A stretch of 64,000 nucleotides of DNA from Streptosporangium sp. NPDC087985 (GTDB lineage: Bacteria > Actinomycetota > Actinomycetes > Streptosporangiales > Streptosporangiaceae): positions 1 to 64,000 of the forward strand of contig NZ_JBIUTQ010000007.1 in NCBI RefSeq assembly GCF_044741965.1, written 5' to 3'. The notes under the pieces are model-generated. The model was not told the origin of the DNA. It was given only the letters and a program-made list of their open reading frames with translations, and searched no databases. The first letter of the stretch is position 1. Each line of letters opens with the position of its first letter. Positions 11,025 through 36,369 of this stretch are shown piece after piece. Position numbers and translations under genes: made by a program.

Positions 11025-11918
11025 TCAGGCGAGGACGCGGCCGACCATCCGGGCGTACATCCGGCCGGGGCTGGGCACCGATGGCGGGTTGAGGAAACCG
11101 GGGAGCATCGGAAGGTCCACGGCGAAGGACTGCAGGCGCTCGTAGAGAGCGTCGGCGTCGGTGGGACGCCGGTCGGGGTCCTTCTCCAGGAGGTCTTCGA
11201 CCAGCCGGTTCAGCTCCGCGGGGACACCGGGGACGGCGGGCGGCCGTTCCTTCACCTGGCGTTCGAACACGGCGTACTCGGTGGGCCCGGTGAAGAGCTG
11301 CCTGCCCGTCAGCATCTCGTGGATCACGCAGCCGAGGGCGTAGAGGTCGCTGCGGGGGCCGGCGAGGCCACTCTGGATCTGCTCGGGGGCCATGTAGGCA
11401 GGCGTACCGAGGAGCTGGCCGACCCGGGTGAACCGGGTCGAGTCCGCCTCGCGGAGCATGGCGAGGCCGAAGTCCAGGACCTTGACGCTGCCGTCGGGGC
11501 AGAGCATCAGGTTGGTCGGCTTGAGGTCGCGGTGGTAGATGGACAGCGCGTGGGCGGCTGACAGCACCGCACACGCTTGGGCGGCGATCGCGGCCGCCCA
11601 CGGGACCGGGAGCGGGCCGTGCTCGCTGACCAGGTCGGCCACGGTGACGCCCTCGATGAACTGCATCACCTGGAAGAGCCGCTGGTCGGAGGTGCCGAAG
11701 TCGTAAAGGACCGGCGCGCCGGGGTGCTCCAGCTTCGCCAGAATGCGCGCTTCGCGGAGGAAACGCCGGTTCAGTTCCTCGTCCGGGCCGCTGAGCAGGC
11801 GCAGGAACTTGACGGCCACCTTGCGGTCGAGGTGCTTGTCGTGGCCGGCGTAGACGGCACCCATGCCGCCCTGGGCGAGGGGGAGGTCATCGAGCACGTA
11901 CCGGTCGCCGATGACCAT
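11025..11918 (-). CDS. minimal Ser/Thr protein kinase (Hanks-type catalytic domain only)
   Basis: 297 aa. It has a Gly-rich loop LAQGGMGAVYAG, VAVK, the catalytic loop HRDLKPTNLML, DFG, and APE (AYMAPE). There is no TM, PASTA, FHA or other accessory domain. RBS GGGGAGGG is present. Confidence 0.85.
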   Translation of the reverse strand: MVIGDRYVLDDLPLAQGGMGAVYAGHDKHLDRKVAVKFLRLLSGPDEELNRRFLREARILAKLEHPGAPVLYDFGTSDQRLFQVMQFIEGVTVADLVSEHGPLPVPWAAAIAAQACAVLSAAHALSIYHRDLKPTNLMLCPDGSVKVLDFGLAMLREADSTRFTRVGQLLGTPAYMAPEQIQSGLAGPRSDLYALGCVIHEMLTGRQLFTGPTEYAVFERQVKERPPAVPGVPAELNRLVEDLLEKDPDRRPTDADALYERLQSFAVDLPMLPGFLNPPSVPSPGRMYARMVGRVLA

Positions 11919-11945
11919 CCGACCCTCCCCTGGACGTGGCGGGAA

Positions 11946-13844
11946 TCAAACCCTTTGGTCGCATGGCCGGAGGTGGCCGTCAACCAGTCCGTCAAAGCCT
12001 AGCCGGATCAGCGTTTCTCCCAGCGCCGTCGTCTCGCGTACCCGGTCCTCCAGTGCGAACAGCTCACGGAAGGCCGTGCCGTACCGCCGCTGGTCGGCGA
12101 GGGGCAGCATCGGCACCCGCGACCGCCGCACGTCGAGGCGGCTGGAGCCGGGGTGGATACGGGCCGCGTCGGCGGAGCGGAGAAAGCCGGCCAGGAAGTC
12201 GGGGTCGAGCCGTTGCGGGTCCACGCGGTAGAGCGTGAGCTGCGGGCCGAGCGCCGCTCCGCTCCGGGTGATCACCCGGACCACGCCCAGGGTGGTGGTC
12301 ACGACGTCCCCAGGTCTGATCATGACCAGTGCGGGGTCGAGGACGGTCCGTCCCGACGGGGGCGTGCCCAGGGCGATGTCGTCGGCGGTCAGGACCGGGA
12401 GCGGGCCTTCGCCGGCCGTCATCTTGGATGGGGCCTGCAGGATGGTGAGCAGGGCGGCCTTGGCCAGCTCGCCGACGGTGGTGGTCGGCAGGTCCTGCCG
12501 TTCGGTGAGCAGCTCAAGTGCCGGAGGGGCCTCCGGCAGCGTGGCCGAGGTGTCGCGGAAGCGGTCCAGCGCGTCGGTGAAGTCGCGCAGGAAGTCGGGG
12601 CCGCCCAGCTGCGGGCGGTGCCGGGCCGGGCTGAGGTCCACCTCGTCGTCGAGCAGGTCGATGATCCGGACGGTACGGCTGTCGCCGGACGGCTCGGCCT
12701 CCGGGTCGCACGTGTAGGCACGCCAGGCGGGTTCCACGGCCGACAGGTCCTCGCTCGCGTCCATTATCAGAATCCGGGAGGGAGGGCGCCTTCCGTCGGG
12801 GCGGCGCAGGATCCACAGATCGGGACCGCCCGGGCCCAGCGTCACCACGGCCCGTAGCGCCCCGGTGCGCAGCAGGTTGCCCCGGATACGCTTGCCGGGA
12901 CGGCGGCCGGCCGCCGCGGCCGGCATCAGGATCGTCACCAGGCCACCCGGCCTCACGTGGGCCAGACAGTGCTGTACCCAGGCAAGCTCGGGCTCCCCGC
13001 GGGGCGGCAGGCCGTACTCCCACCGGGGATCGCCGGTCAGCTCCTCGTAGCCCCATGCGCGCTCGTTGAACGGCGGGTCGCAGACCACGGCGTCGGCGAG
13101 CTCGCCGGCCAGGCCGTCCTCGCGCAGCGAGTCGCCCGCGACGACCCGCGCCCGGGTCCCGCGCAGCAACAACCGGACCGCGGTGAGCAGCGCGTTGGTC
13201 TCGTTGGTCTCCTGGCCGAGCGGGGTGCCGGCGTGCAGGAGGAGGGTGCCGACGCCGCAGGCCGGATCGAGGACGGTCCCCCCCTCCTGGCCGGCCAGGA
13301 GGGACATGAGCGCGGCCACGTCGTCCCTGGTCACCGAGAGCTGGCGGGAGTGAGCCTCCACGTAGCGCTCGCAGAGGAACTCGAAGGTGTCCAGCGGGCC
13401 ACGCTCGGCGGCCAGTTCGGCCACCAGCCTGACGAGCGCGAGGTCGTCCAGCCGCAGATCGGGGGAGCTGGGAAGGTCCGTCGTCGCGGCGGCCAGACCG
13501 GCGAGGGACCGGGTGCCGTGTTTCCGCCACGTCTCCGGTTCCCGGTGGAGGAACAGCAGGAACGCGCCGACCCTGCCCACCAGGTCACCCAGGCGCAGGT
13601 CGTCGACCGAGGTCCGCAGCCGCTGCCAGACCAGGTCGCCGAGGGAGACCTCGAACGACTTGCCGTGGCGGCGCAACCACGCGGCGATCTCGGGCAGGGA
13701 GAACAGCGGGCTGGAGGCCGTACCCCCCGTGGGCTGGGGAAAGTCATCGTGGCGGCGGCGCCAGTTGCTCACCGCGGCGCGGCCGACAGAGGCGAGCCGG
13801 GCGATGTCGCCCGCGTTCACCGTGATGTCCTGGCTCTCCTCCAT
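11946..13844 (-). CDS. single-chain HTH + N6-adenine DNA methyltransferase + HsdS-like target-recognition domain protein
   Basis: 632 aa. The N-terminus DIARLASVGRAAVSNWRRRHDDFPQP is a MerR/excisionase-type HTH. MTase motif I is DPACGVGTLLL and motif IV is VVCDPPFN (DPPF, amino-MTase). The C-terminal ~250 aa has the HsdS TRD pattern (TLYRVDPQRLDPDFLAGFL...GSSRLDVRRSRVPMLPLADQRRYGTAFRE). It stops 27 bp before the kinase start. Confidence 0.8.
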   Translation of the reverse strand: MEESQDITVNAGDIARLASVGRAAVSNWRRRHDDFPQPTGGTASSPLFSLPEIAAWLRRHGKSFEVSLGDLVWQRLRTSVDDLRLGDLVGRVGAFLLFLHREPETWRKHGTRSLAGLAAATTDLPSSPDLRLDDLALVRLVAELAAERGPLDTFEFLCERYVEAHSRQLSVTRDDVAALMSLLAGQEGGTVLDPACGVGTLLLHAGTPLGQETNETNALLTAVRLLLRGTRARVVAGDSLREDGLAGELADAVVCDPPFNERAWGYEELTGDPRWEYGLPPRGEPELAWVQHCLAHVRPGGLVTILMPAAAAGRRPGKRIRGNLLRTGALRAVVTLGPGGPDLWILRRPDGRRPPSRILIMDASEDLSAVEPAWRAYTCDPEAEPSGDSRTVRIIDLLDDEVDLSPARHRPQLGGPDFLRDFTDALDRFRDTSATLPEAPPALELLTERQDLPTTTVGELAKAALLTILQAPSKMTAGEGPLPVLTADDIALGTPPSGRTVLDPALVMIRPGDVVTTTLGVVRVITRSGAALGPQLTLYRVDPQRLDPDFLAGFLRSADAARIHPGSSRLDVRRSRVPMLPLADQRRYGTAFRELFALEDRVRETTALGETLIRLGFDGLVDGHLRPCDQRV

Positions 13845-13928
13845 ACTGGGCCACAGTAGTTGACTGTGCCTTAACGGTCTACAACATGTTTGCTTGTGAA
13901 GTGCTTCAACCAATGCTTTACTGCCTTC

Positions 13929-14726
13929 ATGGCACTGAACGAAGGATTGGCACTGCGCTACGCGGCCCGCTCCGACGTAGGCGTCCGCCGCGAGGCGAAC
14001 GAGGACTCGGGCTACGCGAGCGCGCGTCTGCTCGCCATAGCCGACGGCATGGGTGGTCACGCGGGTGGAGAGGTCGCCAGCTCGCTTGCCGCCACCGCCA
14101 TGGCGGCCCTGGACGACAGCCTTCCGGCCAGCGGTGTCGACCTGGTCGCCGCCCTGAAAGGCGCGGCGAGGGACGTCAACCACACGCTGCACGACATGAG
14201 TGAGCAGGACCCCGCGTTACGCGGGATGGGCACCACCCTGACCGCCATGCTGTGGGACGGCGCCGCCTTCGCCCTTGCCCACGTCGGCGACTCCCGCGCC
14301 TACATGCTGCGCGGCGGTGCCCTCTACCAGATCACCCATGACCACACTCTGGTCCAGTCGCTGGTGGACGAGGGCCGCATCACCCCGGAGCAGGCCGCCG
14401 AGCATCCGCGCCGGTCCATGGTGCTGCGGGTCCTTGAGGGCACCGGTGACGGTGAGCTGGACCTCTCCCTGCGCGAGGCCCAGCCGGACGACCGCTACCT
14501 TCTCTGCTCCGACGGCCTGACCGGGGTGGTCGGCCCGGAGACCCTGTTCAACACGCTGACCGAAATCGCCGACCCCGACGAGGCCGCCCGGTGGCTCATC
14601 GACCTGGCCAACCGGGGCGGCGGTCCCGACAACATCACCTGCATCGTGGCCGACTTCGGGGCCCACGCCGTCTCCGCTGAGCGGTTCCTCGTAGGCGCCG
14701 TGGTCGAGCGGAAACTGACCCCCTGA
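13929..14726 (+). CDS. PP2C-family Ser/Thr protein phosphatase
   Basis: RYAARSDVGVRREANED...LLAIADGMGGHAGGEVAS...DGLTG...GGPDNITCIVADF carries the PPM metal-binding aspartates. It is divergent from the MTase. An alternative ATG start at 13890 exists. Confidence 0.85.
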   Translation: MALNEGLALRYAARSDVGVRREANEDSGYASARLLAIADGMGGHAGGEVASSLAATAMAALDDSLPASGVDLVAALKGAARDVNHTLHDMSEQDPALRGMGTTLTAMLWDGAAFALAHVGDSRAYMLRGGALYQITHDHTLVQSLVDEGRITPEQAAEHPRRSMVLRVLEGTGDGELDLSLREAQPDDRYLLCSDGLTGVVGPETLFNTLTEIADPDEAARWLIDLANRGGGPDNITCIVADFGAHAVSAERFLVGAVVERKLTP

Positions 14727-18234: not shown

Positions 18235-21200
18235 TCACGGCTCGGGGGAGAGGCGGTCGGCGGCGTGTTCGATGGCGGTGCTCACCCGGTCGGCCAGCAG
18301 GCCGACCGCGCCGACCGCACGGGTCACCGGGTCGTCCTCGGCGCCGCCGAGTGCCTTCTCACGCAGGTAGGCCGCCTTCACCTCGGCCCACCGGGCGGCC
18401 TGCCCGGCCGTCATGGTCCCCCGCAGCTCGGCCAGCTTGAGCAGGTTCGCCTCGGCGCCGGAGGTGAGGGTCCGGGCCTCGCCGAGGTAGTGGTCGTCGA
18501 TCAGAGCCTCCAGTTCGGCGTCGTTCATGACCGGGACGATCCTGGCGGCGAGCTTGTTCATGTTCCGGTAGGACCCCTGGAGCTGGAACGGCGGTTCGGT
18601 CCTGGACGCGTCGGACTGGGCGGCCGAGGCGATGTAGGCCCGGTTGCCCGCCAGTACCACCTGCTGGACGCGGAGCAGCCCCCGCAGGACCGGGAGCATC
18701 TCGTCGAGCTCCGCGGCGGAGTACGGGTGGGAGAGCCGGTCGGCCCGGACGGTGGGGTCGCCCTGTGCCAGCCGTACCAGGAGACGGATGTCACCGCGGT
18801 CCCGCGTGGACAGCGGGGCGAGGAACGGGTTGGAGGTGAGCGCGTTGTCGATGTAGCTCAGCGCGAACAGCTCCTCCTTGCCGGACAGCACCTCGCCCAG
18901 GTTCCACACGTCGGCACGGTTGGCGAGCATGTCGGGGATGCGGAACCGCCTGCCGGACTCGGTGTACGGATTGCCCGCCATGCAGACCGCGAAGCGCTTG
19001 CCACGCAGGTCGTAGGTGCGGGTCTCGCCCTCCCAGACACCCTCCATCTGCCGCTGGCCGTCGCACAGCGAGATGAACTTCTGCAGTAGTTCGGGGGAGG
19101 TGTGCTGGATGTCGTCGAGGTAGAGCAGCACGTTGTTGCCCATCTCCAGGGCGAACGAGATCTTCTCGACCTCCTGGCGGGCCGTCGCGTCGGGCGCCCG
19201 CGCCGGGTCCACCGAGGTGACCAGATGCCCCAGGGCGGGGCCGTTGACCTTCACCAGCATCAGACCGAGCCGGCTGGCGACGTACTCCATGAGGGTGGTC
19301 TTGCCGTAGCCGGGCGGTGAGATGAGCAGCAGCATGCCCATCTGGTCGGTCCGCTTGGCGTCGCCGGCCGCGCCGATCTGCTTGGCCAGGTTGTCACCGA
19401 TGAGCGGGAGGTAGACCTCGTCGAGGAGCTCGTTGCGGACGAAGGCGCTCATCACCTTCGGCCGGTACTCCTCCAGGCGCAGCCGCGTCCGTTCCGCGGC
19501 GACCAGGTCGTTGCGCCGCCTCTGGTAGGCGCGGTAGGCGGGGACGAGGTGCTCGCGGAAGTGCCGGGTCCGGCTGAGGAACTCGTCCAGGCGCAGGTCG
19601 AGCCCGCGTCCGGAGATCCGCGGGTGCGTGCCGAGCAGGTCCTCGACCGTGGTGGTCAGGGGCACCGAGGAGTCGTGCCGGGTCACCTCGCACAGCAGTA
19701 CGGCCACCGCCTCCGGCAGCTCGGCCGGTGACTCGAACGCGCCGAGCCACGCCTCGGCCAGCCGGTGGCGCCCGGCCAGGTCGTCCTTGAGCGCCCGCAG
19801 ATCGTCGTCGAACTCCTGGCGTGCCGTCCCCAGCGCCCGGTCGAACCGTTCCAGCAGCGACCGTGCCCCCGCGCTCGTCACGAACCCGGACGGCTCGCCG
19901 GCCAGTTCCTCGAAGAGGTATTCCCCGGCGAGCGTGCAGACGTCCTCGCTGTCCCGCCCGTCCGGACGCCCCGCATCGCCGGGTGCCCGGGCTGCCCGGC
20001 CGTTCCCGGCGGGGGTGCCGTCCGCGGTGCCGCTGAGAGCGGCCATGAAGGTCGTGATGGCGGAGCCGAGCGCGCCGCGGATCTCATCCACCGCGTCGAC
20101 CCGGCCGAACAGGGCGCGTGCCCGTGCCAGCGAGACCACCCGGGTGGTCCACGCCCCGCGAGCGGCCTCGTCCACGCCGAAGGTCCAGAAGAGCTGGGCC
20201 GCCGCCCTCGCCGCGGGGGGATAGCGCAGCAGGCCGGCGCCCGCGTGCAGCCGCAGCAGGGCGTTGAGGATGGCGGCCGCGTCGTGGTCGTGCACGCCCC
20301 GCTCGTAACCCTCGTCGTAACGGGTCTGCGCCACCGGGCGGACGATCTCCAGCAGGCTGCCTCCGTCCGCCGCCGCGCGCAGCGCGTCGAGCGTGACGGC
20401 CGATCCGCCCACGCTCAGCGTGCCGGCCTCGGCGGCGGCCAGGATGGAGGCGGCCAGGTGCTCGCCCCGGTAGACCTCGGCCGTCTCGGAGACCAGCGAC
20501 TGGTTCCAGAACGGCTGGGTCTCGGCGAACGCCTCGTCGCGCACCGGCGAGCGGTAGTCGGTCCCGGTCACGGCGAACGCCAGCCGGTCTCCGTGCGGCA
20601 CCAGCGTGAGGTCGGCGGCCTGGGTGTTGACCGCGAACCGGTGCCGGCCCAGGCGGATCGTCTCGCCGCCGTCGGTGTACAGGTCGAGCCGGTCGCGCAG
20701 GGCGCGGCCCGCCTCCTGACGGGCGGACTTGATCCGGCCTTCGAGCTCCTCGGCCCGGACCTGGTCGCCCAGCGCGCGCAGCTCCCCGGTCACACCGTGC
20801 AGCTTGACGACCATCGGGTCGGAGCCGAAGTAGGTGTTGACCTCGTCGAGCGATCCGAGCCCGGCCGCACGGCGGCGCACGCTGGACAGGATCCGGGTGG
20901 CGGAGTCGGCCAGCCGGTCGGCCCTGCGGGCGCGCTCGTCCAGCAGCGCCTGCCGCCGCGCGGAGAACACCTCGTAGACGTCCTCCCGCTTGGCCGCCAG
21001 CTGGGCCAGGAAGTCGTCGAACTCGGCGAAGCGTGACTCCAGGCCTTCCATCTGGAGCATCAGCCGGCCGAGCTGCTCGTCGCAGCGTTCGGGGGTGTCG
21101 GCCATCGCCAGAGCCCCGGTGATCGACTGTCCCAGCAGTGCGAACTCGGCCGCGAACGCCGCCCGTCCCTCGCTCGCCAGCAGTTCCCCGCGCCGCGCGT

Positions 21201-23298
21201 CCAGTGTGGCGCGGGCCCGGTTGATCCCGCCGAGCACCTCGCCGACCCGCTCCAGGATCGCGGTCCGCGCGGTCGCGTCGGCGATGTCGAGCGTGCCGAC
21301 CACCTCGACCACGATCTCCAGGCCCTGCGTCTGCCCGGCCAGCCGCTCGCGGATCGGCTCGGCCTCGGCCACGGTCGTGATGGTCCCGGCGTCGGAGACC
21401 AGCCGTTCGACCTCCGCGTGGTAGCCGGCGAAGGCGTCCTCACCCCGCAGGAAGCCGGCCGCGCGCTGCGCGGTGGTGCCGAGCTCGGCGTCGAGCTCGG
21501 CGCGCAGCCCGTCGATCCGGCCGGTGTCCACGTAGCGCAGCTCACGCAGGGTCACCAGACGTCCCTGGGCCCGCCGCAGCTCGGCGAGATGGGTGATCCA
21601 TTCCTGCGCGGAGCGGGGGGCCTGCGCGTGTGCCAGCCGTACCAGGGAGGTGATCTCACCGGCGGCGGTCTCCAGCGCGGTCGCGGCCTGCTCGGTGAGC
21701 GACTGGACCTTCTCGAACTCCTCCAGCACCTGTTCGGCGGACGCCCGCACGTCGGCGAGCGGTCCTCGCAGCCCGTGCTCGCCCAGCCAGTGGTAGTGGT
21801 CGAAGGCCCGGGTGCAGGCCGAGATCAGCGCCTCGAAGACAGGGATCGACGGCGCCATCTCCTCGATCATCCGGGCCACCGAGAGGCAGTCGGAGATCCC
21901 GCGCACCAGTTCGGCGTTACCGATCCGCTCCAGCGGCCCGGTACCGGCGGGCTGGGCGGCGGCGTAGACGTCCGACGTGTACGGCGTCTGCCAGACCTGC
22001 ATCGGGTGGACCCGGGTGGGCTCGCCGGAGGTCGCCCTGAAGACGATCAGCGTGCCGTCGTCGAACAGCGAGTAGCCATGGCAGGAAAGAGGTGTGGACA
22101 CCTGTTTGCGGATCACGTTGTACGGCAGCAGCAGCGACCGGCCCTCGGCCCGGGCGTGGAAGACGTAGAGCACGTCCTCGCCGTTGGCCGAGCGGATGAC
22201 CCGCTCGAACTCCAGGCCGGAGACATCGGTGTCGAAGGTCTTGCTGACCCCGGTGGACAGGTAGTAGCCGCCGGGGAAGATGATCCCCTGGTCCTCGGGG
22301 AGGCGCTGGCAGGCCTGGCCGATGCCGTCGAGGCGGACCACGCCCTTGGTCCTGGTGTTGAAGACCAGGTGCCGCCATTCGGTCTCGTTGTAGGGCCGGA
22401 TACGCAGCAGGATCAGCGGGCCGATCCTGGCGTGGTACACATCGGCGTCGGCGAGGCTCTGCAGCGGTTCGGCGACCGGCTCGCGGTAGATGCCCTCGCC
22501 CGTCTCGGTGTTGTTCTCGATCTTGACGGTGAGGTCGCCGCCGACGGTCTCGACGAACACCTCGCCCTGGATCGAGATGTGCGGGTGGCGGCCGAGCACG
22601 TGGTCGTCGCGGGTCGTGGGGATCCACTCGAAGTCGTGCGAGGGCGGGAACGTGTGGTCACGCTCGCCCCGGTCGTCGATGTAGGTGAGTGTGCCGTCCA
22701 CCCCGACCTGCCAGCGCAGCACGCGGATGTCCTGCGGTCCCGTCTGGAAGACGGCCAGCATCTTGCCCTCGACCCGGCGGAGCTGGAGCAGCCGCGTCCC
22801 CCGGTAGTAGCGGTAGAGCTCGGCGAAGTCCCGCTCGAACTGCGGATGGCGGAACAGCGGCGCGGGGTCGAACCGGAAGGCGTCGCCGTCCAGACCACCC
22901 CCGGCACCCGCCGCTCCCCGCACGAAGGTGTGCATGGAGAAGACGTCCTCGACGGTCGTCTCGGGCTTCAACCCCATGAAAACGTTGTAGCCGAACAGGA
23001 TGAGCCCCTGACGGGGGTCGTGCCCGTCTCCCGTCCCCCCGCGTGGGCTCGCCGTCCCGCCGAGCGCCACGATGTCGCGGGGGACGCAGTTGTTCTCGGT
23101 GCGGATCCGCTCGGTACCGATCAGGCGGAGCTCGGCTCCGCCGAATACCTCGAGACGCTGGGTGTTGAGCGTCTCGGCCCGGCGGGCCAGCTCGCCCGCC
23201 CGCTCGGCGAGCCGGGCGCGGAGCACCTCGTAGGTGCCCGCGTCCAGCTCGGAGCGGTCACTGGGAGCATCGACGACCTCTGTCATGGGCGGCGTCAC
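18235..23298 (-). CDS. 1687-aa multidomain protein with C-terminal AAA_5 (MoxR/dynein-type) ATPase, co-operonic with flotillin
   Basis: One uninterrupted ORF. It has a beta-rich N-terminal ~450 aa and a long helical/coiled-coil middle. The C-terminus carries Walker A ISPPGYGKTTLM, Walker B VLLYLDDIQ and sensor-1 MAGNP. Its ATG overlaps the flotillin stop (ATGA, 23295-23298). Confidence 0.8.
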   Translation of the reverse strand: MTPPMTEVVDAPSDRSELDAGTYEVLRARLAERAGELARRAETLNTQRLEVFGGAELRLIGTERIRTENNCVPRDIVALGGTASPRGGTGDGHDPRQGLILFGYNVFMGLKPETTVEDVFSMHTFVRGAAGAGGGLDGDAFRFDPAPLFRHPQFERDFAELYRYYRGTRLLQLRRVEGKMLAVFQTGPQDIRVLRWQVGVDGTLTYIDDRGERDHTFPPSHDFEWIPTTRDDHVLGRHPHISIQGEVFVETVGGDLTVKIENNTETGEGIYREPVAEPLQSLADADVYHARIGPLILLRIRPYNETEWRHLVFNTRTKGVVRLDGIGQACQRLPEDQGIIFPGGYYLSTGVSKTFDTDVSGLEFERVIRSANGEDVLYVFHARAEGRSLLLPYNVIRKQVSTPLSCHGYSLFDDGTLIVFRATSGEPTRVHPMQVWQTPYTSDVYAAAQPAGTGPLERIGNAELVRGISDCLSVARMIEEMAPSIPVFEALISACTRAFDHYHWLGEHGLRGPLADVRASAEQVLEEFEKVQSLTEQAATALETAAGEITSLVRLAHAQAPRSAQEWITHLAELRRAQGRLVTLRELRYVDTGRIDGLRAELDAELGTTAQRAAGFLRGEDAFAGYHAEVERLVSDAGTITTVAEAEPIRERLAGQTQGLEIVVEVVGTLDIADATARTAILERVGEVLGGINRARATLDARRGELLASEGRAAFAAEFALLGQSITGALAMADTPERCDEQLGRLMLQMEGLESRFAEFDDFLAQLAAKREDVYEVFSARRQALLDERARRADRLADSATRILSSVRRRAAGLGSLDEVNTYFGSDPMVVKLHGVTGELRALGDQVRAEELEGRIKSARQEAGRALRDRLDLYTDGGETIRLGRHRFAVNTQAADLTLVPHGDRLAFAVTGTDYRSPVRDEAFAETQPFWNQSLVSETAEVYRGEHLAASILAAAEAGTLSVGGSAVTLDALRAAADGGSLLEIVRPVAQTRYDEGYERGVHDHDAAAILNALLRLHAGAGLLRYPPAARAAAQLFWTFGVDEAARGAWTTRVVSLARARALFGRVDAVDEIRGALGSAITTFMAALSGTADGTPAGNGRAARAPGDAGRPDGRDSEDVCTLAGEYLFEELAGEPSGFVTSAGARSLLERFDRALGTARQEFDDDLRALKDDLAGRHRLAEAWLGAFESPAELPEAVAVLLCEVTRHDSSVPLTTTVEDLLGTHPRISGRGLDLRLDEFLSRTRHFREHLVPAYRAYQRRRNDLVAAERTRLRLEEYRPKVMSAFVRNELLDEVYLPLIGDNLAKQIGAAGDAKRTDQMGMLLLISPPGYGKTTLMEYVASRLGLMLVKVNGPALGHLVTSVDPARAPDATARQEVEKISFALEMGNNVLLYLDDIQHTSPELLQKFISLCDGQRQMEGVWEGETRTYDLRGKRFAVCMAGNPYTESGRRFRIPDMLANRADVWNLGEVLSGKEELFALSYIDNALTSNPFLAPLSTRDRGDIRLLVRLAQGDPTVRADRLSHPYSAAELDEMLPVLRGLLRVQQVVLAGNRAYIASAAQSDASRTEPPFQLQGSYRNMNKLAARIVPVMNDAELEALIDDHYLGEARTLTSGAEANLLKLAELRGTMTAGQAARWAEVKAAYLREKALGGAEDDPVTRAVGAVGLLADRVSTAIEHAADRLSPEP

Positions 23299-25337
23299 TG
23301 CTTGCCGGAGTCGAGGGCGGCCGAGGTTTCGGCGGAGCCGGGCTCCCGCGTGGCGCCCAGCAGGTCACGTAGCCTGTCCGCGTCGGCTCCGCCCGAGTTG
23401 ATCAGTTTGACCAGCAGCGCGGAGAGGGAGAGGTTGCGCACGTCGGCGGTGTCGAGCGAGCCGAGCACCCTGGTCAGGTCGGCGGGCAGGCTCTGTGAGC
23501 CGTCCAGGTACGGCCCGGCCAGCGTCTGGGCGACGTCGGAGTGCTGCACGAAGCCGTCCACGATCTTGCCCATGCTGATCGAGCCCACCAGCCGGTCGAG
23601 GAAGACGCTGTCGCCGCCGACGATGTCGATGTTGGCCTTGGACAGGCCCGCGGACAGCACCTCGGCCTGCGCCTCGGCGACCTTGAGCTGGACGTTCACC
23701 CCGGCCAGGCGGATCTCCTTCTCCGCCTCCAGCCGCAGGCGGTACTCCTCGTGACCGCGGCTCGCGTCGTCCAGCGCGGCCATCGCCGCCGCCTTCTCGG
23801 TCAGGCCCTCGGCCTCGGCCTTGAGCCTCTCCCGCACCCCCATGGCAGAGGCCAGAGCCTTGGCCTGGTCGCCCTCGGCGGCGGCCAGCGCCTTCTCCCG
23901 CTCGATCAGGGCCTCGGCGCGGCCGATCTTCTCGATCGCTTCGGCGTCCCGCTCGCGCACCTGCACCTCGGCCAGGCCGGTCGCCGCCGTCTCGGCCTGG
24001 ACACCTTCGGCCAGACGGATCTTGGCGCGGGCGTCGAGCTCGGCGGCCTGCTGCCGCGACTCGGCCAGCACCAGTGTCTCGCGCGCCTGGTGCCGGGACG
24101 CCGCCTCGGACGCCTCGGCCGCCTTGATGTCCTTGACCAGGCTCTCCTGTGCCTCGGCCTCGGCCTGGATGATCAGGGCCTGGCGGGTCCGCTCGGCCTC
24201 CTCGACCACCCGCAGGCGCTTGATGCTCTCCTCCTCCTCGGCGACCGTCTTCTCCACCGCGATCCGCTCACGGATCACCTCGGCGATGGAGCGCTTCTCG
24301 CCTTCGAGCTCCTTGTCCTTGGAGATGCGGGACAGCTCGGTCTCGCGCTCGCGGGAGATGACCTCCAGCATGCGGTCCTTCTCGATCCGCTCGGACTCGA
24401 TGGCGATGACCCGCTCGCGGTTCTTCGCCGCCACGGCGATCTCGCGGGCCCGGTTCTCCTGCTGGATGCCGAGCTGCTCGTCGGTGTGCAGGCCGGCGGC
24501 CTGCGCCTTGAGCCGCTCCTCGGCCTGCACCTTGGCGATCTCCGCCTCCTCGCGGGCGCGCATGGTCTCGACCTCGCGCCGCTGCTTGATCTCCGCGTCG
24601 GCCTGGCGGCGCTCCAGTTCCAGGATGGCCTCCCGCGCGTCCACGTTCTGGCGGGTGATCTCCTTCTCCTCGTGCCGCTGGAACTCGTTGGTCCGCACGT
24701 GCTCGATGGCGGTCAGCTCGGTGATCTTCCTGATGCCCTGCGCGTCGAGGATGTTGTCCTTGTCGAGAGAGAGCAGCGAGGTCTGCTCCAGGTAGTCGAT
24801 GGCCGCGTCCTCAAGGCTGTAGCCGTTCAGGTCGGTGCCGATGACCTGGATGATCTGGTCGCGGAACTGGTCGCGCTGGGTGTAGAGGTCCACGAAGTCG
24901 AGCTGCTTGCCGACCGTCTTGAGCGCCTCGGAGAACTTGGCGTTGAACAGCTCCTGCAGCGTCTCCTTGTCGCTGGCCCGCGCGGTGCCGATGGCCTGGG
25001 CGACCTTGACCACGTCCTCGACGGTCTTGTTGACCCGGACGAAGAAGGTGATCCGGATGTCGGCCCGGATGTTGTCCCGGCAGATCAGGCCCTCGCGGCC
25101 GGTCCGTGCGATCTCGATGGTCTTCACCGAGATGTCCATGATCTCCGCCCGGTGGAACACGGGCAGCACGATCGCCCCGGTGAAGGTGACGTCCACCTTG
25201 TTGACCTTGGAGATGATCAGTGCCTTACCCTGCTCGACCTTGTTGAACAGGCGGCTGATCATGATAAGTAAACTGACGACGACGAGAAGGATGACGGCGA
25301 GAAGAATGCCCAGCCCGGTGGAGATGACGTCGTTCAT
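23295..25337 (-). CDS. flotillin-family SPFH/band-7 protein (FloT/YqiK-like)
   Basis: 680 aa. It has an N-terminal TM helix (GLGILLAVILLVVVSLLIMI), an SPFH domain, and a very long Glu/Ala/Arg-rich coiled coil (EAEIAKVQAEERLKAQAA...). Confidence 0.9.
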   Translation of the reverse strand: MNDVISTGLGILLAVILLVVVSLLIMISRLFNKVEQGKALIISKVNKVDVTFTGAIVLPVFHRAEIMDISVKTIEIARTGREGLICRDNIRADIRITFFVRVNKTVEDVVKVAQAIGTARASDKETLQELFNAKFSEALKTVGKQLDFVDLYTQRDQFRDQIIQVIGTDLNGYSLEDAAIDYLEQTSLLSLDKDNILDAQGIRKITELTAIEHVRTNEFQRHEEKEITRQNVDAREAILELERRQADAEIKQRREVETMRAREEAEIAKVQAEERLKAQAAGLHTDEQLGIQQENRAREIAVAAKNRERVIAIESERIEKDRMLEVISRERETELSRISKDKELEGEKRSIAEVIRERIAVEKTVAEEEESIKRLRVVEEAERTRQALIIQAEAEAQESLVKDIKAAEASEAASRHQARETLVLAESRQQAAELDARAKIRLAEGVQAETAATGLAEVQVRERDAEAIEKIGRAEALIEREKALAAAEGDQAKALASAMGVRERLKAEAEGLTEKAAAMAALDDASRGHEEYRLRLEAEKEIRLAGVNVQLKVAEAQAEVLSAGLSKANIDIVGGDSVFLDRLVGSISMGKIVDGFVQHSDVAQTLAGPYLDGSQSLPADLTRVLGSLDTADVRNLSLSALLVKLINSGGADADRLRDLLGATREPGSAETSAALDSGKQ

Positions 25338-25349
25338 GTGGTCCTTCGG

Positions 25350-25943
25350 TTAAATAGGGCGGTGGGGGTCGAGTTCCGCGTCGTACGGCATCACCCAGAA
25401 GAACTCACCCGCGGAGTCATAGGCGAATATCAGGGCGGTGCTGCCGGCGTCGAAGACGTCGTCGCCGGTCTGACGGACCTGAACGAGAGCGGAGGAGCCG
25501 TCCGCGGCGGTGACCTCGGCCTGGCCGAAGCTCCTGTCGACCCGGCCCGTACGGATGACGCACGTCCGGCCCACGAAGTCGGCGCGGGAGGGGAGTTGTT
25601 CCTTCCGGGTGACACGGCGCAGGGGCAGCAGGATCAGGCGGGTGCCGGCCCAGGCGCAGACGAGCGCCGCCACCAGCACGCCGGTCAACGCGAGAGTGCC
25701 GCTGAACAACACCCCGCCGGTCAGGCTGGTGAACCACGCGATGACCACCATCAGCGACACGGCCACGGAGATCGGCACTCCGCCCAGCCCGAGGCCGCTG
25801 AGGAACCCCGCCGTATCGTCGACCTCGCCGTCGAGCCCGAGGCCGCTGACCATGGCGAACAGCCAGTAACCGACGACCACCACAAGGAGGAATGTGAAAA
25901 GGGCGGTCGGGAAAGCTAATACCGCATCGACGAACTGGCCCAT
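25350..25943 (-). CDS. NfeD/YqiJ-like membrane protein (flotillin partner)
   Basis: 197 aa. It has 3-4 TM helices followed by a C-terminal beta/OB-like soluble part. It lies 12 bp upstream of the flotillin gene, as in yqiJ-yqiK and yuaF-floT pairs. Confidence 0.75.
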   Translation of the reverse strand: MGQFVDAVLAFPTALFTFLLVVVVGYWLFAMVSGLGLDGEVDDTAGFLSGLGLGGVPISVAVSLMVVIAWFTSLTGGVLFSGTLALTGVLVAALVCAWAGTRLILLPLRRVTRKEQLPSRADFVGRTCVIRTGRVDRSFGQAEVTAADGSSALVQVRQTGDDVFDAGSTALIFAYDSAGEFFWVMPYDAELDPHRPI

Positions 25944-26133
25944 TGGCTATGAGATCCCCTGTTGGTGCGCACAGTGGCGCTTCCCCGAGCGCATGTTCCT
26001 GACTATACAAATCTAAAGATCAACCAAAGGGGATGGTTCCCGAAACCCGAAGAATATCGAGAAAGTTATCGAACGTACGGGAAGGCCGAGGAGGCGGAGC
26101 GGAGCTCCGGGTCCTCGGCCGTGGGGGAGAGGA

Positions 26134-26226
26134 TCAGGCGGCTCGGGTGACCATGTAGGCCAGGCCGACGAGGATCACGACGGGGATGAGCCACACGATC
26201 GCCTCGATGGCGAATTCCTTGTACAT
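26134..26226 (-). CDS. candidate 30-aa single-TM micro-protein
   Basis: MYKEFAIEAIVWLIPVVILVGLAYMVTRAA. The ATG lies 8 nt after GGAAGGG. The hydrophobic core is flanked by charged ends. It has no homology anchor, so it is tentative. Confidence 0.3.
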   Translation of the reverse strand: MYKEFAIEAIVWLIPVVILVGLAYMVTRAA

Positions 26227-26415
26227 GCGGGGCGCCCTTCCGGAGCGATGTCGCCGAGAAGTACGGAGAATCCGACGATAGCGGTTGACCCGCGCCACGA
26301 CCAGGATCCGCACCAACCGCCCGCCGGGAAGGAGGGCCCGCCCCCTGCCGGCGGACCACCGTCCATACGGCTCCGGGACGTCGGACGGTGCCGCGCCGGG
26401 GACCTCCGGACGCGC

Positions 26416-27177
26416 CTACGAGGGGACGGCCGAGCCGACGACCACGGGAGTGTCCGTACCGGGACCCTCGACGACGTCAGCCACCACGCAGGTGATGTTG
26501 TCGGGGCCACCCGCCTCGCAGGCAAGCTCGATGAGCCGCCGGGTAACCGCGTCGAGGTCGTCGACGTCGGCGAGCACCTGACGGAGCTGGCCGGCCTCGA
26601 CCACCCCGGACAGCCCGTCGGAGCAGAGCAGGTAGCGGTCGCCGACCTCGGCGTCGCGCAGGGAGAGATCGGGGTCGATGGTGTCGCTGCCGTCCAGGAC
26701 CTGGAGCAGTATCGACCTGTGCGGATGCCGGGCGGCCTCCTCGGCGGTGATCCGGCCGTCGTCCATCAGCGTCTGGACCAGGGTATGGTCGTAGGTGATC
26801 TGGTAGAGGTCACCGTTGCGGAGCAGGTAGGCACGTGAGTCACCGATGTGGGCGAGGGCGACCCGGGGGCCGTCCCAGAGCATCAGGGTCAGAGTGGTGC
26901 CCATGCCGGTGAGGCTCGGATCCTCCTCGACCAGCTCACGCAGGCGCTGGTTGGCCTTGCGGACCCCGGCCTCGGCAGAGGCGACCAGATCCTCGGAGTC
27001 CTCATGGTCCAGGGCGGCGACCGTGGCGATCGCCGCCGAGCTGGCGACCTCCCCGCCGACATGGCCGCCCATCCCGTCGGCGACGGCAAGCAGCCGGGCG
27101 CCGGCGTAGGCCGCGTCCTCATTGCCCTGGCGGACCCGGCCGACATCGGAGCCTGCCGCATAGCGGAGCGTGATCAT
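26416..27177 (-). CDS. PP2C-family Ser/Thr protein phosphatase (paralog of 13929..14726)
   Basis: MITLRYAAGSDVGRVRQGNED...LLAVADGMGGHVGGEVAS...GGPDNITCVVADV is near-colinear with the first PP2C. The start at 27177 is internal to the longer shadow ORF. Confidence 0.85.
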   Translation of the reverse strand: MITLRYAAGSDVGRVRQGNEDAAYAGARLLAVADGMGGHVGGEVASSAAIATVAALDHEDSEDLVASAEAGVRKANQRLRELVEEDPSLTGMGTTLTLMLWDGPRVALAHIGDSRAYLLRNGDLYQITYDHTLVQTLMDDGRITAEEAARHPHRSILLQVLDGSDTIDPDLSLRDAEVGDRYLLCSDGLSGVVEAGQLRQVLADVDDLDAVTRRLIELACEAGGPDNITCVVADVVEGPGTDTPVVVGSAVPS

Positions 27178-27406
27178 CTTCAAACCACTGGAACGTCGAG
27201 TTGCACGAGTGAGTCGCTTTCCGGCAGTTGGGACGGGCTTAGGGCGAACCGAGTTGTTCCACGATCCACTGAACACCATGGTGACGCAAGCGGCCCAGGG
27301 AAGTGTTGCCACATCTGTTGACAGGCGTGGCGGCGCGTAAGCTGTTTCGGCGCCCCGGAGATTGCCGGGGGGCTCCCCACCTCACGCACGGCTAGGAGAC
27401 CAGGAA

Positions 27407-33984: not shown

Positions 33985-34021
33985 GGTGCTTCCACGTGAG
34001 ATCACCTCACGTGGAAGCACC
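33985..34021. other. perfect 16-bp-stem palindrome (ggtgcttccacgtgag-atcac-ctcacgtggaagcacc) spanning the PepSY gene stop
   Basis: Read directly. It is probably the terminator/3' stabiliser of the minus-strand PepSY gene. Confidence 0.6.
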
Positions 34022-35425
34022 GGCGGACCCCCTGGACGGCCTTCCCCTGAGTAGTCCGAGCAGCACGTCGACGACGAGGAATGCGGCCAGGGAGATCCCG
34101 AGGAGCGGCAGGAACAGCCCGACCGCCACGGCCACCGCAGCCAGAGCCGGAAGCACGGCCCGAGGGACCTGCCGCCACGTGCCGCGGGGATAGGGACGGC
34201 CGAAGCGTTTCTGGGTGGGACGGCGCTGCCACCACATGCGGTAGCCGTACACGATGAGGAAGACGAGCCCGATCGCCAGCGCGCCCACGACGATCTGGTT
34301 GGCCAAGCCGAACAGCAGGCCCATGTGGCCGTCGATACCCCAGCGGGTGAGCTTGGCGGCCAGCGGGAAGTCGGCGAAACGCAGTTCGTCGGTGACCTGG
34401 CCGGTGGCCGGGTCGACGGCGACCTGGTCCAGCCGCTGCGGCCACTCCTTGTCGATCTCCTTGACCACGTAGGCGTCGGCGGGCTTGCTCGGCCAGACGA
34501 TTTCCAGCGGCCCGGACAGCCCCTTGCCCGCCGCGGCCTGGACGATCTGGTCCACTGAGGCGTCTTCAGCGGATTCGGAGGGCATGTGCCCCGCGTGGTC
34601 CGCGTGATCGCCGGTGGCGGCGGAGACCGAGGGCGTCGTCCAGCCGAGCGCCGCGCGCAGCTCGTCGACGTTCTCGCCCGCGTACTTCGACCAGGTCAGC
34701 CCGGTGGCGGACAGGAAGAGCAACCCTGCGGCCACCCACAGGCCCACTGATCCGTGCCAGGACAGTGTGCGCCGCCGCCCGGTGAGCGTGCGGTCCGGTG
34801 CGATGATCGCGCGCAGCCGGCGTACGGGGCGGCGGCGGCCCAGCCACAGCAGGACGCCGCCCAGCGCCACCACCCACAGCCAGCTGGCGGCGAGCTCACT
34901 GTAGATGCGTCCTGGTTCACCAAGGAGCAGGGTGCGGTGCAGGTTGGAGATCCAGGTGCGCAGCGGCAGCGCACCGGAGCTGCCGTAACTCTCTTCTGCG
35001 CCGCGGATCTGTCCGGTGTGGGGGTCGACGAAGACGGCCAGCCGGAGCCCTTCCTCCAGTTCGGGCACGTTGAGCAGGACCTGTGTGGTCCTGCCGGGCT
35101 CGGCCGGCGTACGGACGGCGCTGATGGTTCCTTCGGGGTGGGCGGCCCGGGCGGCGGTGATCTGCTGGGACAGCGGCAGTGTGGTCGCCCCGACCGGCGC
35201 GGTCAGCTCGTGAGCATAGACCAGTCTCTCCAGCTGGAAGGAGGTCGCGTACAGCAGTCCGGTGGTCGCGGCCACCAGCAGGAACGGCGCGATGAGGATT
35301 CCGGCGTAGAAGTGCAGGCGCAGCACCAGCGGGCGGATCGCCGCCCAGCCGGACCGCCTGGACGAGGCGGACGCATCGGGATCGGGAGAGACTCGGGCGG
35401 GCTGGGTCTCAAGGTCGGATGTCAT
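34007..35425 (-). CDS. PepSY-associated TM-helix membrane protein
   Basis: 472 aa. It has multiple TM helices (HFYAGILIAPFLLVAATTGLLY, WLWVVALGGVLLWLG, GLVFLIVYGYRMWWQRR) and a His-rich periplasmic segment. RBS GGAGAA is present. Confidence 0.8.
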   Translation of the reverse strand: MTSDLETQPARVSPDPDASASSRRSGWAAIRPLVLRLHFYAGILIAPFLLVAATTGLLYATSFQLERLVYAHELTAPVGATTLPLSQQITAARAAHPEGTISAVRTPAEPGRTTQVLLNVPELEEGLRLAVFVDPHTGQIRGAEESYGSSGALPLRTWISNLHRTLLLGEPGRIYSELAASWLWVVALGGVLLWLGRRRPVRRLRAIIAPDRTLTGRRRTLSWHGSVGLWVAAGLLFLSATGLTWSKYAGENVDELRAALGWTTPSVSAATGDHADHAGHMPSESAEDASVDQIVQAAAGKGLSGPLEIVWPSKPADAYVVKEIDKEWPQRLDQVAVDPATGQVTDELRFADFPLAAKLTRWGIDGHMGLLFGLANQIVVGALAIGLVFLIVYGYRMWWQRRPTQKRFGRPYPRGTWRQVPRAVLPALAAVAVAVGLFLPLLGISLAAFLVVDVLLGLLRGRPSRGSAGAST

Positions 35426-35503
35426 CGGGATGTTTCTCCGTTTTACAGGGATGTGCAAGCCGACAGGCACACATCACCAAGGCAGGGGCAAACGAGCCGG
35501 AAG

Positions 35504-36042
35504 TCACGGTTGGGTCCGATCCCAGGCGATGGACAGGGAGTCGACGCCGTAGACAATCGAGATCTTCCGGAAGGCGATCTCCTCGGCCGGTACGGCCAGG
35601 CGCAGGGTGGGGAAGTGGCGCAGCAGCGCGGGGGAGGCGATGCGCATCTCCATCTGGGCTAGCGGCGCGCCGACGCACCGGTGGATGCCGTGCCCGAAGG
35701 CGAGATGGGAGACCACCTCGCGGCCGGGGCGGCGCTGTCGATGCCTGGGCCGAGCGCGGGGTCGCGGTTGGCTCCGGTCAGCGAGCACAGCACCATCGGT
35801 CTTTGCGTTCGCGGGTGACCAGCTCCGTTAGGTAGGCCATCAAGTCGTTGACCGCCTGGAGTGAGACCTCGGGGCCCGCGGAGAGGTCGAACCGGTCGGT
35901 GCTCAGGCGCAGGAAGTCGGCGCGGTCGGCGTAGGGCACGCCCAGCAGCTCGCAGACCACCAGCGAGGGGATGGGGAGCGCGAAGGACTACATCAGGTCG
36001 GCCGGGGAGCCTGATCTCTCGGGGGAATTCTGTTTCTGACAT
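35504..36042 (-). pseudogene. cytochrome P450 3' remnant (frameshifted, N-terminal ~60% missing)
   Basis: Three frames carry successive P450 C-terminal motifs: ELLGVPYADRADFLRL, ANRDPALGPGIDS (ANRDP...FPDP-like), and the heme loop FGHGIHRCVGAPLAQME. Lower-GC non-coding DNA lies upstream (36043-36369). Confidence 0.7.
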
Positions 36043-36369
36043 CGATCAGATCCTCATCGTCATGCAGTCGGGCGCCGTGGCGCTGGTGGGGGCGTCGGAC
36101 CCGCGAAGAGCCGGACACCCTCCTCTTTCAGGGCTTTACGGTGCACAAACTCACGACATCAGTAGTCGTATCAGGACTAGAGGTAGTTCCAGATCTGCAT
36201 CAATGGTTGTAGATCGCACCCGGCAGCCCCTCAGGGGAGAGAATCGAGCGATGGGAGCGCAACGGTCTTCGCTGCCTCCACGGCCGGACATCCGCGTCCG
36301 ACGCTCTGGTTCCAGCGAAGGGTTGACGGAAGCCGGGTGCGATATCGCGGTGAAAGGGCTTGAACTCTG

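Follow-up and report, generated by a model that had tools for sequence, protein, structure and literature searches.

The 64,000-nucleotide window of Streptosporangium sp. NPDC087985 DNA analysed here carries a trio of genes in which the gene for a giant AAA+ protein is truly and obligately linked with a flotillin operon. Nothing sets this trio apart from others of its kind, and Pfam, NCBI and one comparative-genomics paper already list the system to which it belongs; the giant's role is a prediction drawn from genes and structure models. We put at roughly one in two the probability that the trio is a self-contained membrane-maintenance module in which the giant would act as an ATP-driven remodeller of the flotillin scaffold, as part of the envelope-stress network. 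Bacterial flotillins are widely studied as membrane-microdomain organisers; to our knowledge their standard picture includes no energy-consuming partner, and we know of no ATPase that controls PspA/ESCRT-III-like polymers in bacteria. Because the trio is present in at least 585 species-level genomes, the giant has more than 6,600 relatives (protein search) and its ATPase core is among the most conserved parts, the giant is a directly testable candidate ATPase.

The trio proposed in a first-pass annotation of this DNA exists, as three co-directional minus-strand ORFs at 25943..25350 (197 aa), 25337..23295 (680 aa) and 23298..18235 (a maximal ORF of 1687 aa). Their GC3 values, in gene order, are 0.87, 0.96 and 0.94 in a window of 71% GC, which indicates that these are real genes and not chance ORFs. 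The locus is laid out as follows:

25944..26415, minus strand: upstream intergenic region of 472 nt, the presumed operon promoter region
25350..25943, minus strand: gene 1, a 197-aa small inner-membrane protein, YqiJ/YuaF-like (NfeD2-type)
25338..25349, minus strand: 12-nt spacer between the TAA stop of gene 1 and the flotillin ATG, with a GAAGGA Shine-Dalgarno-like motif, read directly from the sequence
23295..25337, minus strand: gene 2, a 680-aa flotillin of the SPFH2 / YqiK-FloT type
23286..23298, minus strand: flotillin-giant junction, with the flotillin TGA at 23297-23295, a GTG at 23298-23296 and an ATG at 23286-23284
18235..23286, minus strand: gene 3, a soluble giant AAA+ protein of probably 1683 aa (DUF3686 + DUF7902 + AAA/AAA_5)

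The giant had been read as a 1687-aa protein whose ATG overlaps the flotillin stop as ATGA. The overlapping codon is in fact the GTG, in the form GTGA, and is probably unused: close homologues of the giant and the NCBI model all begin MTE..., which corresponds to the ATG at 23286. The giant is thus likely to be 1683 aa long and to start after an 8-nt spacer behind the flotillin TGA, and no Shine-Dalgarno motif was found in this spacer. Nor does tight coupling argue for a stoichiometric complex, as had been suggested, since close spacing indicates co-expression only and the flotillin-giant gap is 40–260 nt in Streptomyces and other lineages. The upstream region holds a 30-aa hydrophobic ORF (26226..26134) that is kept only in Streptosporangium (locus L001). 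A promoter scan of 17.9–27.5 kb, this region included, returned no sigma-70-like site, a terminator scan of the same interval returned a single terminator-like match, under shuffle expectation, and tRNA and Rfam scans gave no match near the trio. Neighbouring genes in the window are housekeeping ones (purC, prfC and metabolic genes). The two PP2C paralogues described as bracketing the region are present and 60% identical to each other, and this bracket is specific to Streptosporangium.

The gene 1 product has three N-terminal TM segments, judged from hydrophobic segments, and a C-terminal beta-rich domain. It matches a Hymenobacter 'DUF1449 family protein' at 1e-8 (phmmer), and the profile of its homologues aligns with E. 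coli YqiJ over 120 collinear columns (hhalign E=1.1e-4, at a probability of only 56%) and finds YuaF (2k14) as its top PDB match, a weak one at E=0.2. In a single-sequence Pfam search the protein gave no significant NfeD or YqiJ match; its homologues gave faint ones only (NfeD at E=0.008 in Deinococcus, YqiJ_N at E=0.15 in Proteus), and a PDB sequence search with the protein found no match. The NfeD/YqiJ-like label first attached to this gene is drawn from profiles and not from single-sequence Pfam matches; the profile signals, weak as they are, point to the expected family. We call the protein YqiJ/YuaF-like, and an NfeD-like OB fold in its C-terminal domain is putative.

That the second gene encodes a flotillin is borne out by a Pfam Band_7 score of 25.5 bits against a cut-off of 23.6 and by similarity to E. 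coli YqiK (BLASTP 1e-38, 29% identity across 466 aa); a PDB sequence search with it gave no match. A single TM segment (aa 1-35) forms the anchor, followed by the SPFH domain (aa 33-176), an E/A/R-rich coiled-coil at about aa 220-560 and a C-terminal IxIVGG...GKxVDG motif that is common to partner flotillins and YqiK. Since the anchor is N-terminal and basic residues come next, the bulk of the flotillin would lie on the cytoplasmic side.

The giant is 100% identical to an NCBI protein of Streptosporangium sp. NPDC087985, carries the NCBI product name 'DNA repair ATPase' and matches Pfam DUF3686 (1e-214), DUF7902 (1e-29), AAA (9e-6) and AAA_5 (3e-5). No TM segment was seen on reading its sequence, which suggests a soluble protein, and a PDB sequence search returned P-loop matches only. 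AF2 models of monomer fragments, with pLDDT of 83.8 for the propeller and arms and 87.9 for the AAA+ module, agree with the layout first read from the sequence (beta-rich N-terminus, helical middle, C-terminal AAA_5) and predict that the beta-rich region is a propeller. In residue numbers that run to 1687, those of the maximal ORF, the parts are:

aa 21-52: N-terminal long helix, ahead of the propeller
aa 58-437 (21988..23127, minus strand): beta-propeller of about seven blades (AF2, block pLDDT mostly 85–96)
aa 455-1290 (19429..21936, minus strand): antiparallel helical arms and more (AF2 models)
about aa 1300-1600 (18499..19401, minus strand): MoxR/dynein-clade AAA+ module (second AF2 model)
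aa 1601-1687 (18238..18498, minus strand): C-terminal helical extension (AF2 model)

Foldseek matches the propeller to WD40-type propellers in the PDB (Sec12, EED, the clathrin terminal domain and Vps18) at E of about 1e-5 to 1e-4. The stretch from aa 455 to 1290 comprises the arms (455-871, with DUF7902 at 621-704), followed by a small beta domain (880-918) and then a helical domain (944-1290). Nowhere is the giant less conserved: identity to distant homologues averages 27–35% here, compared with 70% for the ATPase core. That core has the fold nearest to MoxR, dynein and midasin, with the pre-sensor-1 beta-hairpin (1417-1430) of the MoxR/AAA_5 clade, and structurally it is matched best by CbbQ and NorQ, both MoxR proteins. 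Its motifs are Walker A SPPGYGKTT (1327-1335), Walker B LYLDDIQH (1392-1399) and sensor 1 MAGNP (1440-1444), with conserved R1461 and R1578. The GYGKTT (aa 1330), DDIQ (1395) and MAGNP (1440) noticed earlier are all present and intact, and alignment shows them to be near-invariant across the giant's family. No VWA domain was found in the three trio proteins, and no conserved fourth gene that might supply one.

We compared 89 loci in all: 80 from a genome scan, mostly actinomycetes, and 9 more distant ones (two from Proteus and one each from Vibrio, pQBR103, Hymenobacter, Deinococcus, Neptuniibacter, Pseudoalteromonas and the BD1-7 clade). Wherever upstream sequence was available, a flotillin gene lies directly upstream of the giant on the same strand (86/86 loci; 77/77 genome-scan loci with flank and 9/9 distant loci), across Actinomycetota, Myxococcota, Deinococcota, Bacteroidota and Gammaproteobacteria. 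With a flotillin gene ahead of the giant in all of these loci and the ATPase motifs intact, neither a distribution mostly away from flotillin genes nor degenerate motifs, which the first-pass annotation had named as grounds for abandoning the pairing, was seen. A homologue of gene 1 is recognisable by sequence at the same position in about 65 of the 80 loci, and a size-matched ORF occupies it in all distant loci. The trio genes are the sole genes conserved across loci, and the identities of giant and flotillin to the window proteins co-vary (r=0.86). Identity is 57–90% across actinomycete orders and roughly tracks taxonomy, as though the genes were passed on vertically and subject to strong purifying selection; the trio also occurs on megaplasmids in several phyla.

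The trio follows a CesT/Tir(DUF2170)-PspA pair in Pseudoalteromonas and Hymenobacter and a PspA-yjf-type cluster in pQBR103. PspA was otherwise scarce, found by jackhmmer within about 8 kb in 3/89 loci and in 0/80 genome-scan loci, and tblastn found none in the window, so for this organism any link to PspA would be indirect. Extra genes at some loci are PLD with TelA, TelA, LemA and an ECF sigma factor. The last was considered as a general upstream neighbour and is clear only in Micromonospora (L010). LexA adjoins the Hymenobacter locus, a single case. Three further candidates were discarded. What resembled a fusion of flotillin and giant in Glycomyces (L057), and a 'second giant' in Streptomyces (L073), proved to be shadow ORFs, out of frame and of the kind common in high-GC DNA. 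A 389-aa plus-strand ORF upstream in Streptomyces is a low-complexity shadow; the real gene there lies on the opposite strand and encodes a PucR-type regulator, divergently oriented.

It had been thought that no such giant partner belongs to any described system. The same gene order and architecture are, however, given by Ravi et al. 2024 (mSystems 9:e00847-23, PMC11237479), who describe an operon of YqiJ/YuaF, then band-7/flotillin, then a giant listed in Table S3 as 'Betapropeller+Coiled-coil+AAA-ATPase'. The operon, of which Dokdonia donghaensis ANH61663.1 is an example, is found behind a CesT/Tir-PspA pair or in a more widely distributed 'abbreviated' three-gene form; the paper is comparative genomics and gives no structure, AAA+ clade assignment or experiment. 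The window trio is the abbreviated form of this PspA-associated flotillin operon, and it is the lack of a CesT/Tir-PspA pair at the locus that places it there. It has the 3-TM YqiJ/YuaF-type protein encoded directly upstream (by TM count, the phmmer match at 1e-8 and profile signals), a flotillin with Band_7, YqiK homology, a TM anchor, an E/A-rich middle and the C-terminal motif, and a giant that AF2 models as propeller, helical arms and AAA+ fold. Elsewhere in the literature, no publication was found under DUF3686, DUF7902, PF12458 or flotillin with DNA repair ATPase, and the search gave no experimental report on any member of the giant family. The giant goes unmentioned in Hinderhofer 2009, Popp 2022, Kaur 2020 and the P. 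aeruginosa SPFH paper, and appears in Ravi et al. 2024 alone.

How, then, might the trio work? Together, the 3-TM YqiJ/YuaF-like protein and the flotillin would form an SPFH scaffold at the membrane's cytoplasmic face, with the soluble giant as its dedicated ATPase. A ring is the probable arrangement of the MoxR/dynein-clade AAA+ modules, from which the long helical arms would project the N-terminal propellers so that these could bind the flotillin assembly or proteins held there. On membrane stress or damage, ATP hydrolysis may then drive the scaffold to be assembled, remodelled or dismantled, or clients to be extracted, and the module may work beside PspA/IM30 encoded elsewhere in the genome. 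A physical interaction of flotillin and giant is inferred from linkage only. We favour this scaffold-remodelling role because of the linkage in 86/86 loci, the conservation of the trio alone and the co-variation at r=0.86; because of the PspA contexts and the membrane or lipid extras (PLD, TelA, LemA, and also an ECF sigma factor) at some loci; because the flotillin is a true YqiK homologue with its C-terminal motif kept; and because the giant combines a propeller with a MoxR-clade ATPase of near-invariant motifs and 70% core identity, and has no TM segment. Precedent also argues for it, as AAA+ machines are established partners of SPFH assemblies (HflK/C-FtsH, prohibitin-m-AAA) and MoxR, midasin and dynein ATPases are mechanical remodellers of protein complexes. 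Against it we count the scarcity of PspA near the trio, that canonical MoxR ATPases work with a VWA/MIDAS partner, of which there is none at the trio, and that Walker B reads DD and not DE. The PLD and TelA neighbours in some proteobacteria, counted on the same side, could equally fit a conflict system.

The giant could instead be a MoxR-type assembly chaperone that matures or inserts one membrane complex or cofactor, with the flotillin as platform only. Its closest structural matches, CbbQ and NorQ, are maturases that serve Rubisco and NO reductase, respectively, and a report on S. aureus describes unfolded membrane clients as being stabilised by FloA-NfeD (PMC11222466; cited in PMC13086221). 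We nevertheless think this unlikely, as a VWA partner is missing, none of the 89 loci has a conserved client gene beside the trio and the flanks differ wholly between lineages.

An anti-phage or conflict system, in which the AAA+/propeller protein would sense infection and membrane disruption via the flotillin module (or via PLD at loci that have it) would be the abortive effector, we judge improbable. In its size and its propeller the NTPase resembles STAND-like sensors, the trio rides on megaplasmids in several phyla, and its Vibrio and Neptuniibacter neighbours include PLD (HKD), TelA, a ClpX-like gene and a Dam methyltransferase. PADLOC (PADLOC-DB v2), however, gave the giant only weak IetA P-loop matches (E about 2e-3), which we regard as noise, and no match for the flotillin or the small protein; no copy was found in 50,697 phage records or IMG/VR, the actinomycete identities of 57–90% look vertical, the window neighbours (purC, prfC, metabolic genes) are housekeeping, and the core trio has no effector domain. 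The early hint of an anti-phage function is without support.

Equally improbable in our view is a coat- or motor-like membrane shaper, whose propeller and helices, in the manner of protocoatomer or dynamin, would bend or vesiculate the membrane with a flotillin dome. Foldseek aligned the giant across more than 1,100 columns with nucleoporins and with the heavy chains of clathrin and dynein, and flotillin forms domes on membranes (PMC13000311), but the TM-scores are about 0.1, which leaves the propeller match as the one to rely on; the helices are arranged as long hairpins resembling coiled coils and do not make up an alpha-solenoid, and no lipid-binding element was identified.

Very improbable is a DNA repair ATPase, a name taken solely from the product name at NCBI and the description of DUF3686 in Pfam, beside weak P-loop similarity to RuvB and RFC (19–23 bits against cut-offs of 280–300; PDB E about 1e-3): no DNA-binding, nuclease or SMC-type domain was detected in Pfam and fold searches, PDB sequence matches cover the P-loop only while the fold is a propeller with a MoxR-type core, the obligate partners are two membrane proteins, and contexts hold PspA, not repair genes (LexA being the single case noted above). 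The name, which many of these proteins carry, is without support and should be treated as a misannotation.

Compared with known systems, the trio shares with E. coli yqiJK and B. subtilis yuaFG (floT), the SPFH2/NfeD2 pairs of Hinderhofer et al. 2009, the order of a gene for a small multi-TM protein, here putatively NfeD-like, ahead of an N-terminally anchored flotillin. It differs in its third gene, sibD/ibsD coming after yqiK, and in a flotillin about 130 aa longer than YqiK (680 vs 553 aa). The full PspA operon of Ravi et al. has the same giant architecture, and the window lacks its CesT/Tir-PspA pair and PLD gene; Ravi-type operons in Hymenobacter, Pseudoalteromonas and pQBR103 carry homologues of the window giant. 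Whereas canonical MoxR proteins (CbbQ, NorQ, RavA) span about 270–500 aa and have a VWA/MIDAS partner, in the giant the N-terminal propeller and helical arms take up about 1,300 aa, Walker B reads DD and a VWA partner is absent. Midasin/Rea1 and dynein, also AAA_5, have six AAA modules per chain against one in the giant, whose distal domain is a beta-propeller in place of a MIDAS or microtubule-binding domain. HflK/C-FtsH and prohibitin-m-AAA likewise pair an SPFH cage with an AAA+ machine at the membrane, but the giant has no protease domain or TM segment and belongs to another AAA+ clade than FtsH/m-AAA, and the trio's SPFH domain is predicted to face the cytoplasm and not the periplasm. In Vps4-ESCRT-III and PspF-PspA, as in the role proposed here, an AAA+ ATPase is associated with a polymer that reshapes the membrane from below, and in some genomes the trio adjoins PspA, of the ESCRT-III superfamily; the giant is no homologue of Vps4, having no MIT domain and belonging to another clade, and has no PspF-type HTH. 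We suggest, tentatively and with less confidence than the remodelling role itself, that the giant might be the missing ATP-driven remodeller of bacterial under-membrane scaffolds, a MoxR-clade ring that, by means of its coiled-coil arms and propellers, would grip and disassemble or reshape flotillin domes and, at loci that also encode PspA, the ESCRT-III-like PspA polymers. If so, it would match Vps4 in function without being its homologue, and Vps4-like ATPases appear to be absent from bacteria according to a 2025 review (PMC7619361).

The three genes form a co-directional set on the minus strand of the window (GC ~71%), as the first-pass annotation had proposed, and occupy the following open reading frames (ORFs):

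25943 to 25350, minus strand: gene 1, small protein, 197 aa
25337 to 23295, minus strand: gene 2, flotillin, 680 aa
23298 to 18235, minus strand: gene 3, giant AAA+ protein (hereafter the giant), maximal ORF 1687 aa

Third-position GC of these ORFs is 0.87–0.96, the level that genuine coding sequence should show in this genome, and the 12-nt gap separating gene 1 from gene 2 contains GAAGGA. The flotillin stop is TGA at 23297–23295, and the codon overlapping it is GTG (GTGA) rather than the ATG (ATGA) initially read there. Because every close homologue of the giant begins MTE..., matching the ATG at 23286, translation likely starts at that codon, after an 8-nt spacer and with no Shine-Dalgarno motif. 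The length of 1687 aa first assigned is that of the maximal ORF only; the NCBI protein of Streptosporangium sp. NPDC087985, to which the giant is 100% identical, has 1683 aa and is named 'DNA repair ATPase'.

The giant belongs to a large family, with >6,600 relatives in a 5.8-billion-protein set, 902 representatives of its N-terminal 720 aa at 50% clustering, and near-full-length relatives of ~1500–2040 aa among the 150 representatives listed. When one genome was scanned for each species, at least 585 carried the giant; 80 loci were fetched from these, including Myxococcus and metagenome-assembled genomes labelled Deltaproteobacteria, Clostridia and proteobacterium. A flotillin homologue (52–85% identical) lies immediately upstream on the same strand in all 77 loci with upstream sequence, most of which also carry a recognisable small-protein homologue. 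The identical three-gene order recurs in nine more distant loci (two from Proteus mirabilis, and one each from Vibrio, the Pseudomonas plasmid pQBR103, a Hymenobacter plasmid, a Deinococcus plasmid, Neptuniibacter, Pseudoalteromonas and the BD1-7 clade), bringing the linkage to 86/86; in none of these 86 does the giant stand away from a flotillin gene, in keeping with the pairing first proposed. Identity to the window proteins co-varies between giant and flotillin (r = 0.86, n = 81), and an all-against-reference ORF comparison of the loci revealed no fourth conserved gene. Together, these comparisons strongly support a functional flotillin–ATPase unit. The spacing between the two genes ranges from a 4-nt overlap to ~260 nt, and translational coupling is therefore common, not universal; it says nothing about the stoichiometric complex that the first-pass annotation had drawn from it. 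The giant also occurs in many clinical P. mirabilis assemblies (its 90% cluster, P0351, has 357 member sequences), and its neighbours in the P. mirabilis loci are LemA, which is transcribed divergently, and a 392-aa gene.

By sequence, gene 2 is a genuine flotillin: its Pfam Band_7 match exceeds the cut-off, it aligns with Escherichia coli YqiK (BLASTP 1e-38, 29% identity over 466 aa), and it has a single N-terminal transmembrane (TM) segment followed by basic residues and an E/A/R-rich middle. Its C-terminal IxIVGG...GKxVDG motif is common to YqiK and all partner flotillins. Gene 1, which has three TM segments and no Pfam match by single-sequence search, can be called YqiJ/YuaF-like with moderate confidence. 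It is homologous (1e-8) to a Hymenobacter protein labelled 'DUF1449 family' by NCBI, and its 14-sequence profile is collinear with E. coli YqiJ (hhalign E = 1.1e-4, probability 56%) and has Bacillus subtilis YuaF as its best PDB match (E = 0.2).

The giant matches Pfam DUF3686 (1e-214), DUF7902 (1e-29) and, weakly, AAA/AAA_5, and no TM segment was found in it. AlphaFold2 models built from a 53-sequence alignment in two fragments, aa 1–1200 (pLDDT 83.8) and aa 1001–1687 (pLDDT 87.9), give a confident predicted structure that agrees with the beta-rich N-terminus, helical middle and C-terminal AAA_5 domain described at first:

aa 21–52: N-terminal helix
aa 58–437: beta-propeller, roughly seven-bladed
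aa 455–871: long helical hairpins
aa 880–918: small beta domain
aa 944–1290: helical domain
~aa 1300–1600: AAA+ module with pre-sensor-1 beta-hairpin
after the AAA+ module: C-terminal helical tail

The ATPase belongs to the MoxR/dynein clade. Its motifs are intact, as first read: Walker A SPPGYGKTT, Walker B LYLDDIQH, MAGNP, R1461 and R1578 show little or no variation in alignments down to 30% overall identity. Mean identity is 70% in the ATPase core versus 27–35% in the helical arms, and this conservation clearly points to selection to stay active.

Around the trio, the window holds two PP2C genes, an HTH-cupin gene, FAD/methyltransferase genes, purC and prfC, neighbours common only to another Streptosporangium among the loci compared. 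The PP2C paralogs noted earlier are 60% identical, the second (26416–27312) lying upstream of the flotillin operon and the first clustering with a Ser/Thr kinase (297 aa) and a 748-aa N6 DNA methylase-domain protein at 11025–14726, where the long-ORF calls of methylase and PP2C overlap by ~300 nt and one start is therefore over-extended. Between the YqiJ/YuaF-like gene and the PP2C upstream of it, a gap of 472 nt contains a 30-aa hydrophobic ORF, MYKEFAIEAIVWLIPVVILVGLAYMVTRAA (26134–26226, minus strand), with a 93% identical copy in the equivalent place in the other Streptosporangium (L001 4707–4796) and none in other genera among the loci compared; it may encode a small membrane peptide or be no more than conserved leader sequence. 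A 916-aa LuxR-family AAA_16 regulator (5295–8045, plus strand) and a PepSY-TM, Dyp-type peroxidase and PCu(A)C copper chaperone cluster (34007–38201, minus strand) belong to the ordinary chromosomal gene content and have no relation to the trio.

Elsewhere, the trio follows DUF2170 (YjfI, CesT/Tir-like), then PspA, in Pseudoalteromonas, and 'chaperone Tir', then PspA/IM30, in Hymenobacter. On pQBR103, a well-studied Pseudomonas fluorescens megaplasmid and a convenient genetic system for functional tests, it comes last in a cluster with genes for PspA, rhomboid, DUF2491, DUF350, DUF1190 and glutathionylspermidine synthase (NC_009444.1, 85–98 kb); an MvaT/MvaU-family gene comes after it. PspA lies within ~8 kb of the trio in only 3/89 loci, none of them among the 80 from the genome scan, which are mostly actinomycetes. 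TelA, a ClpX-like AAA+ gene and a Dam-type methyltransferase are just downstream in Vibrio (L083 12502–15754). One Micromonospora locus (L010 3819–4942) is alone among the loci in having an ECF sigma factor, along with a 205-aa ORF, directly upstream on the same strand. Most Streptomyces loci have, next to the trio and usually divergent from it, a gene for a PucR-type regulator (GGDEF_2 + HTH_30, ~431 aa; L038 3753–5048, minus strand, and likewise in ~25–29 others), a candidate lineage-specific regulator.

Gene content, architecture, obligate flotillin linkage, an intact MoxR-clade ATPase and occasional embedding in PspA operons form the basis for a mechanism to which, as a whole, we give a probability of about 0.5. 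Flotillin and the YqiJ/YuaF-like protein would make a cytoplasm-facing SPFH scaffold, the AAA+ module would drive oligomerisation of the giant, and its propellers, carried on helical arms, may grip the scaffold or its clients; during membrane stress, ATP hydrolysis by the giant would remodel the assembly. That the giant is instead a MoxR-style maturase of some client seems unlikely. A conflict or defence system, an anti-phage role having been hinted at earlier, is improbable: PADLOC returned only P-loop noise for the trio proteins, and searches of 50,697 phage records and of IMG/VR found no copy. We consider a coat- or motor-like membrane shaper equally improbable. A DNA repair ATPase, as the protein is named, is very improbable, the name having no basis beyond a Pfam description and P-loop matches to RuvB and RFC that score far under family cut-offs.

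The trio is already catalogued, in Pfam (DUF3686/DUF7902), NCBI naming and Ravi et al. 2024 (PMC11237479; preprint 2020), who describe an operon group joining a CesT/Tir-PspA pair with three further genes, for a YqiJ/YuaF protein, a band-7/flotillin and a beta-propeller/coiled-coil AAA+ protein, and more widely distributed abbreviated operons. The window locus is an ordinary member, the abbreviated rather than the full form, and because of this the first-pass statement that no such giant partner had been described was incorrect. In Neptuniibacter (L088 11911–13697), the stop codon of the giant lies in a 4-nt overlap with a PLD (HKD) gene, which is followed by TelA; the PLD gene matches a variant noted by Ravi et al. 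What we add is the linkage count, the structural model, the clade assignment and evidence that 'DNA repair' is an unfounded label. The literature searched held no experimental study of any family member, and according to a 2025 review (PMC7619361) bacterial PspA systems appear to have no Vps4-like ATPase; the trio, widespread and well conserved, could provide the ATPase that is missing from the flotillin/PspA biology of bacteria.
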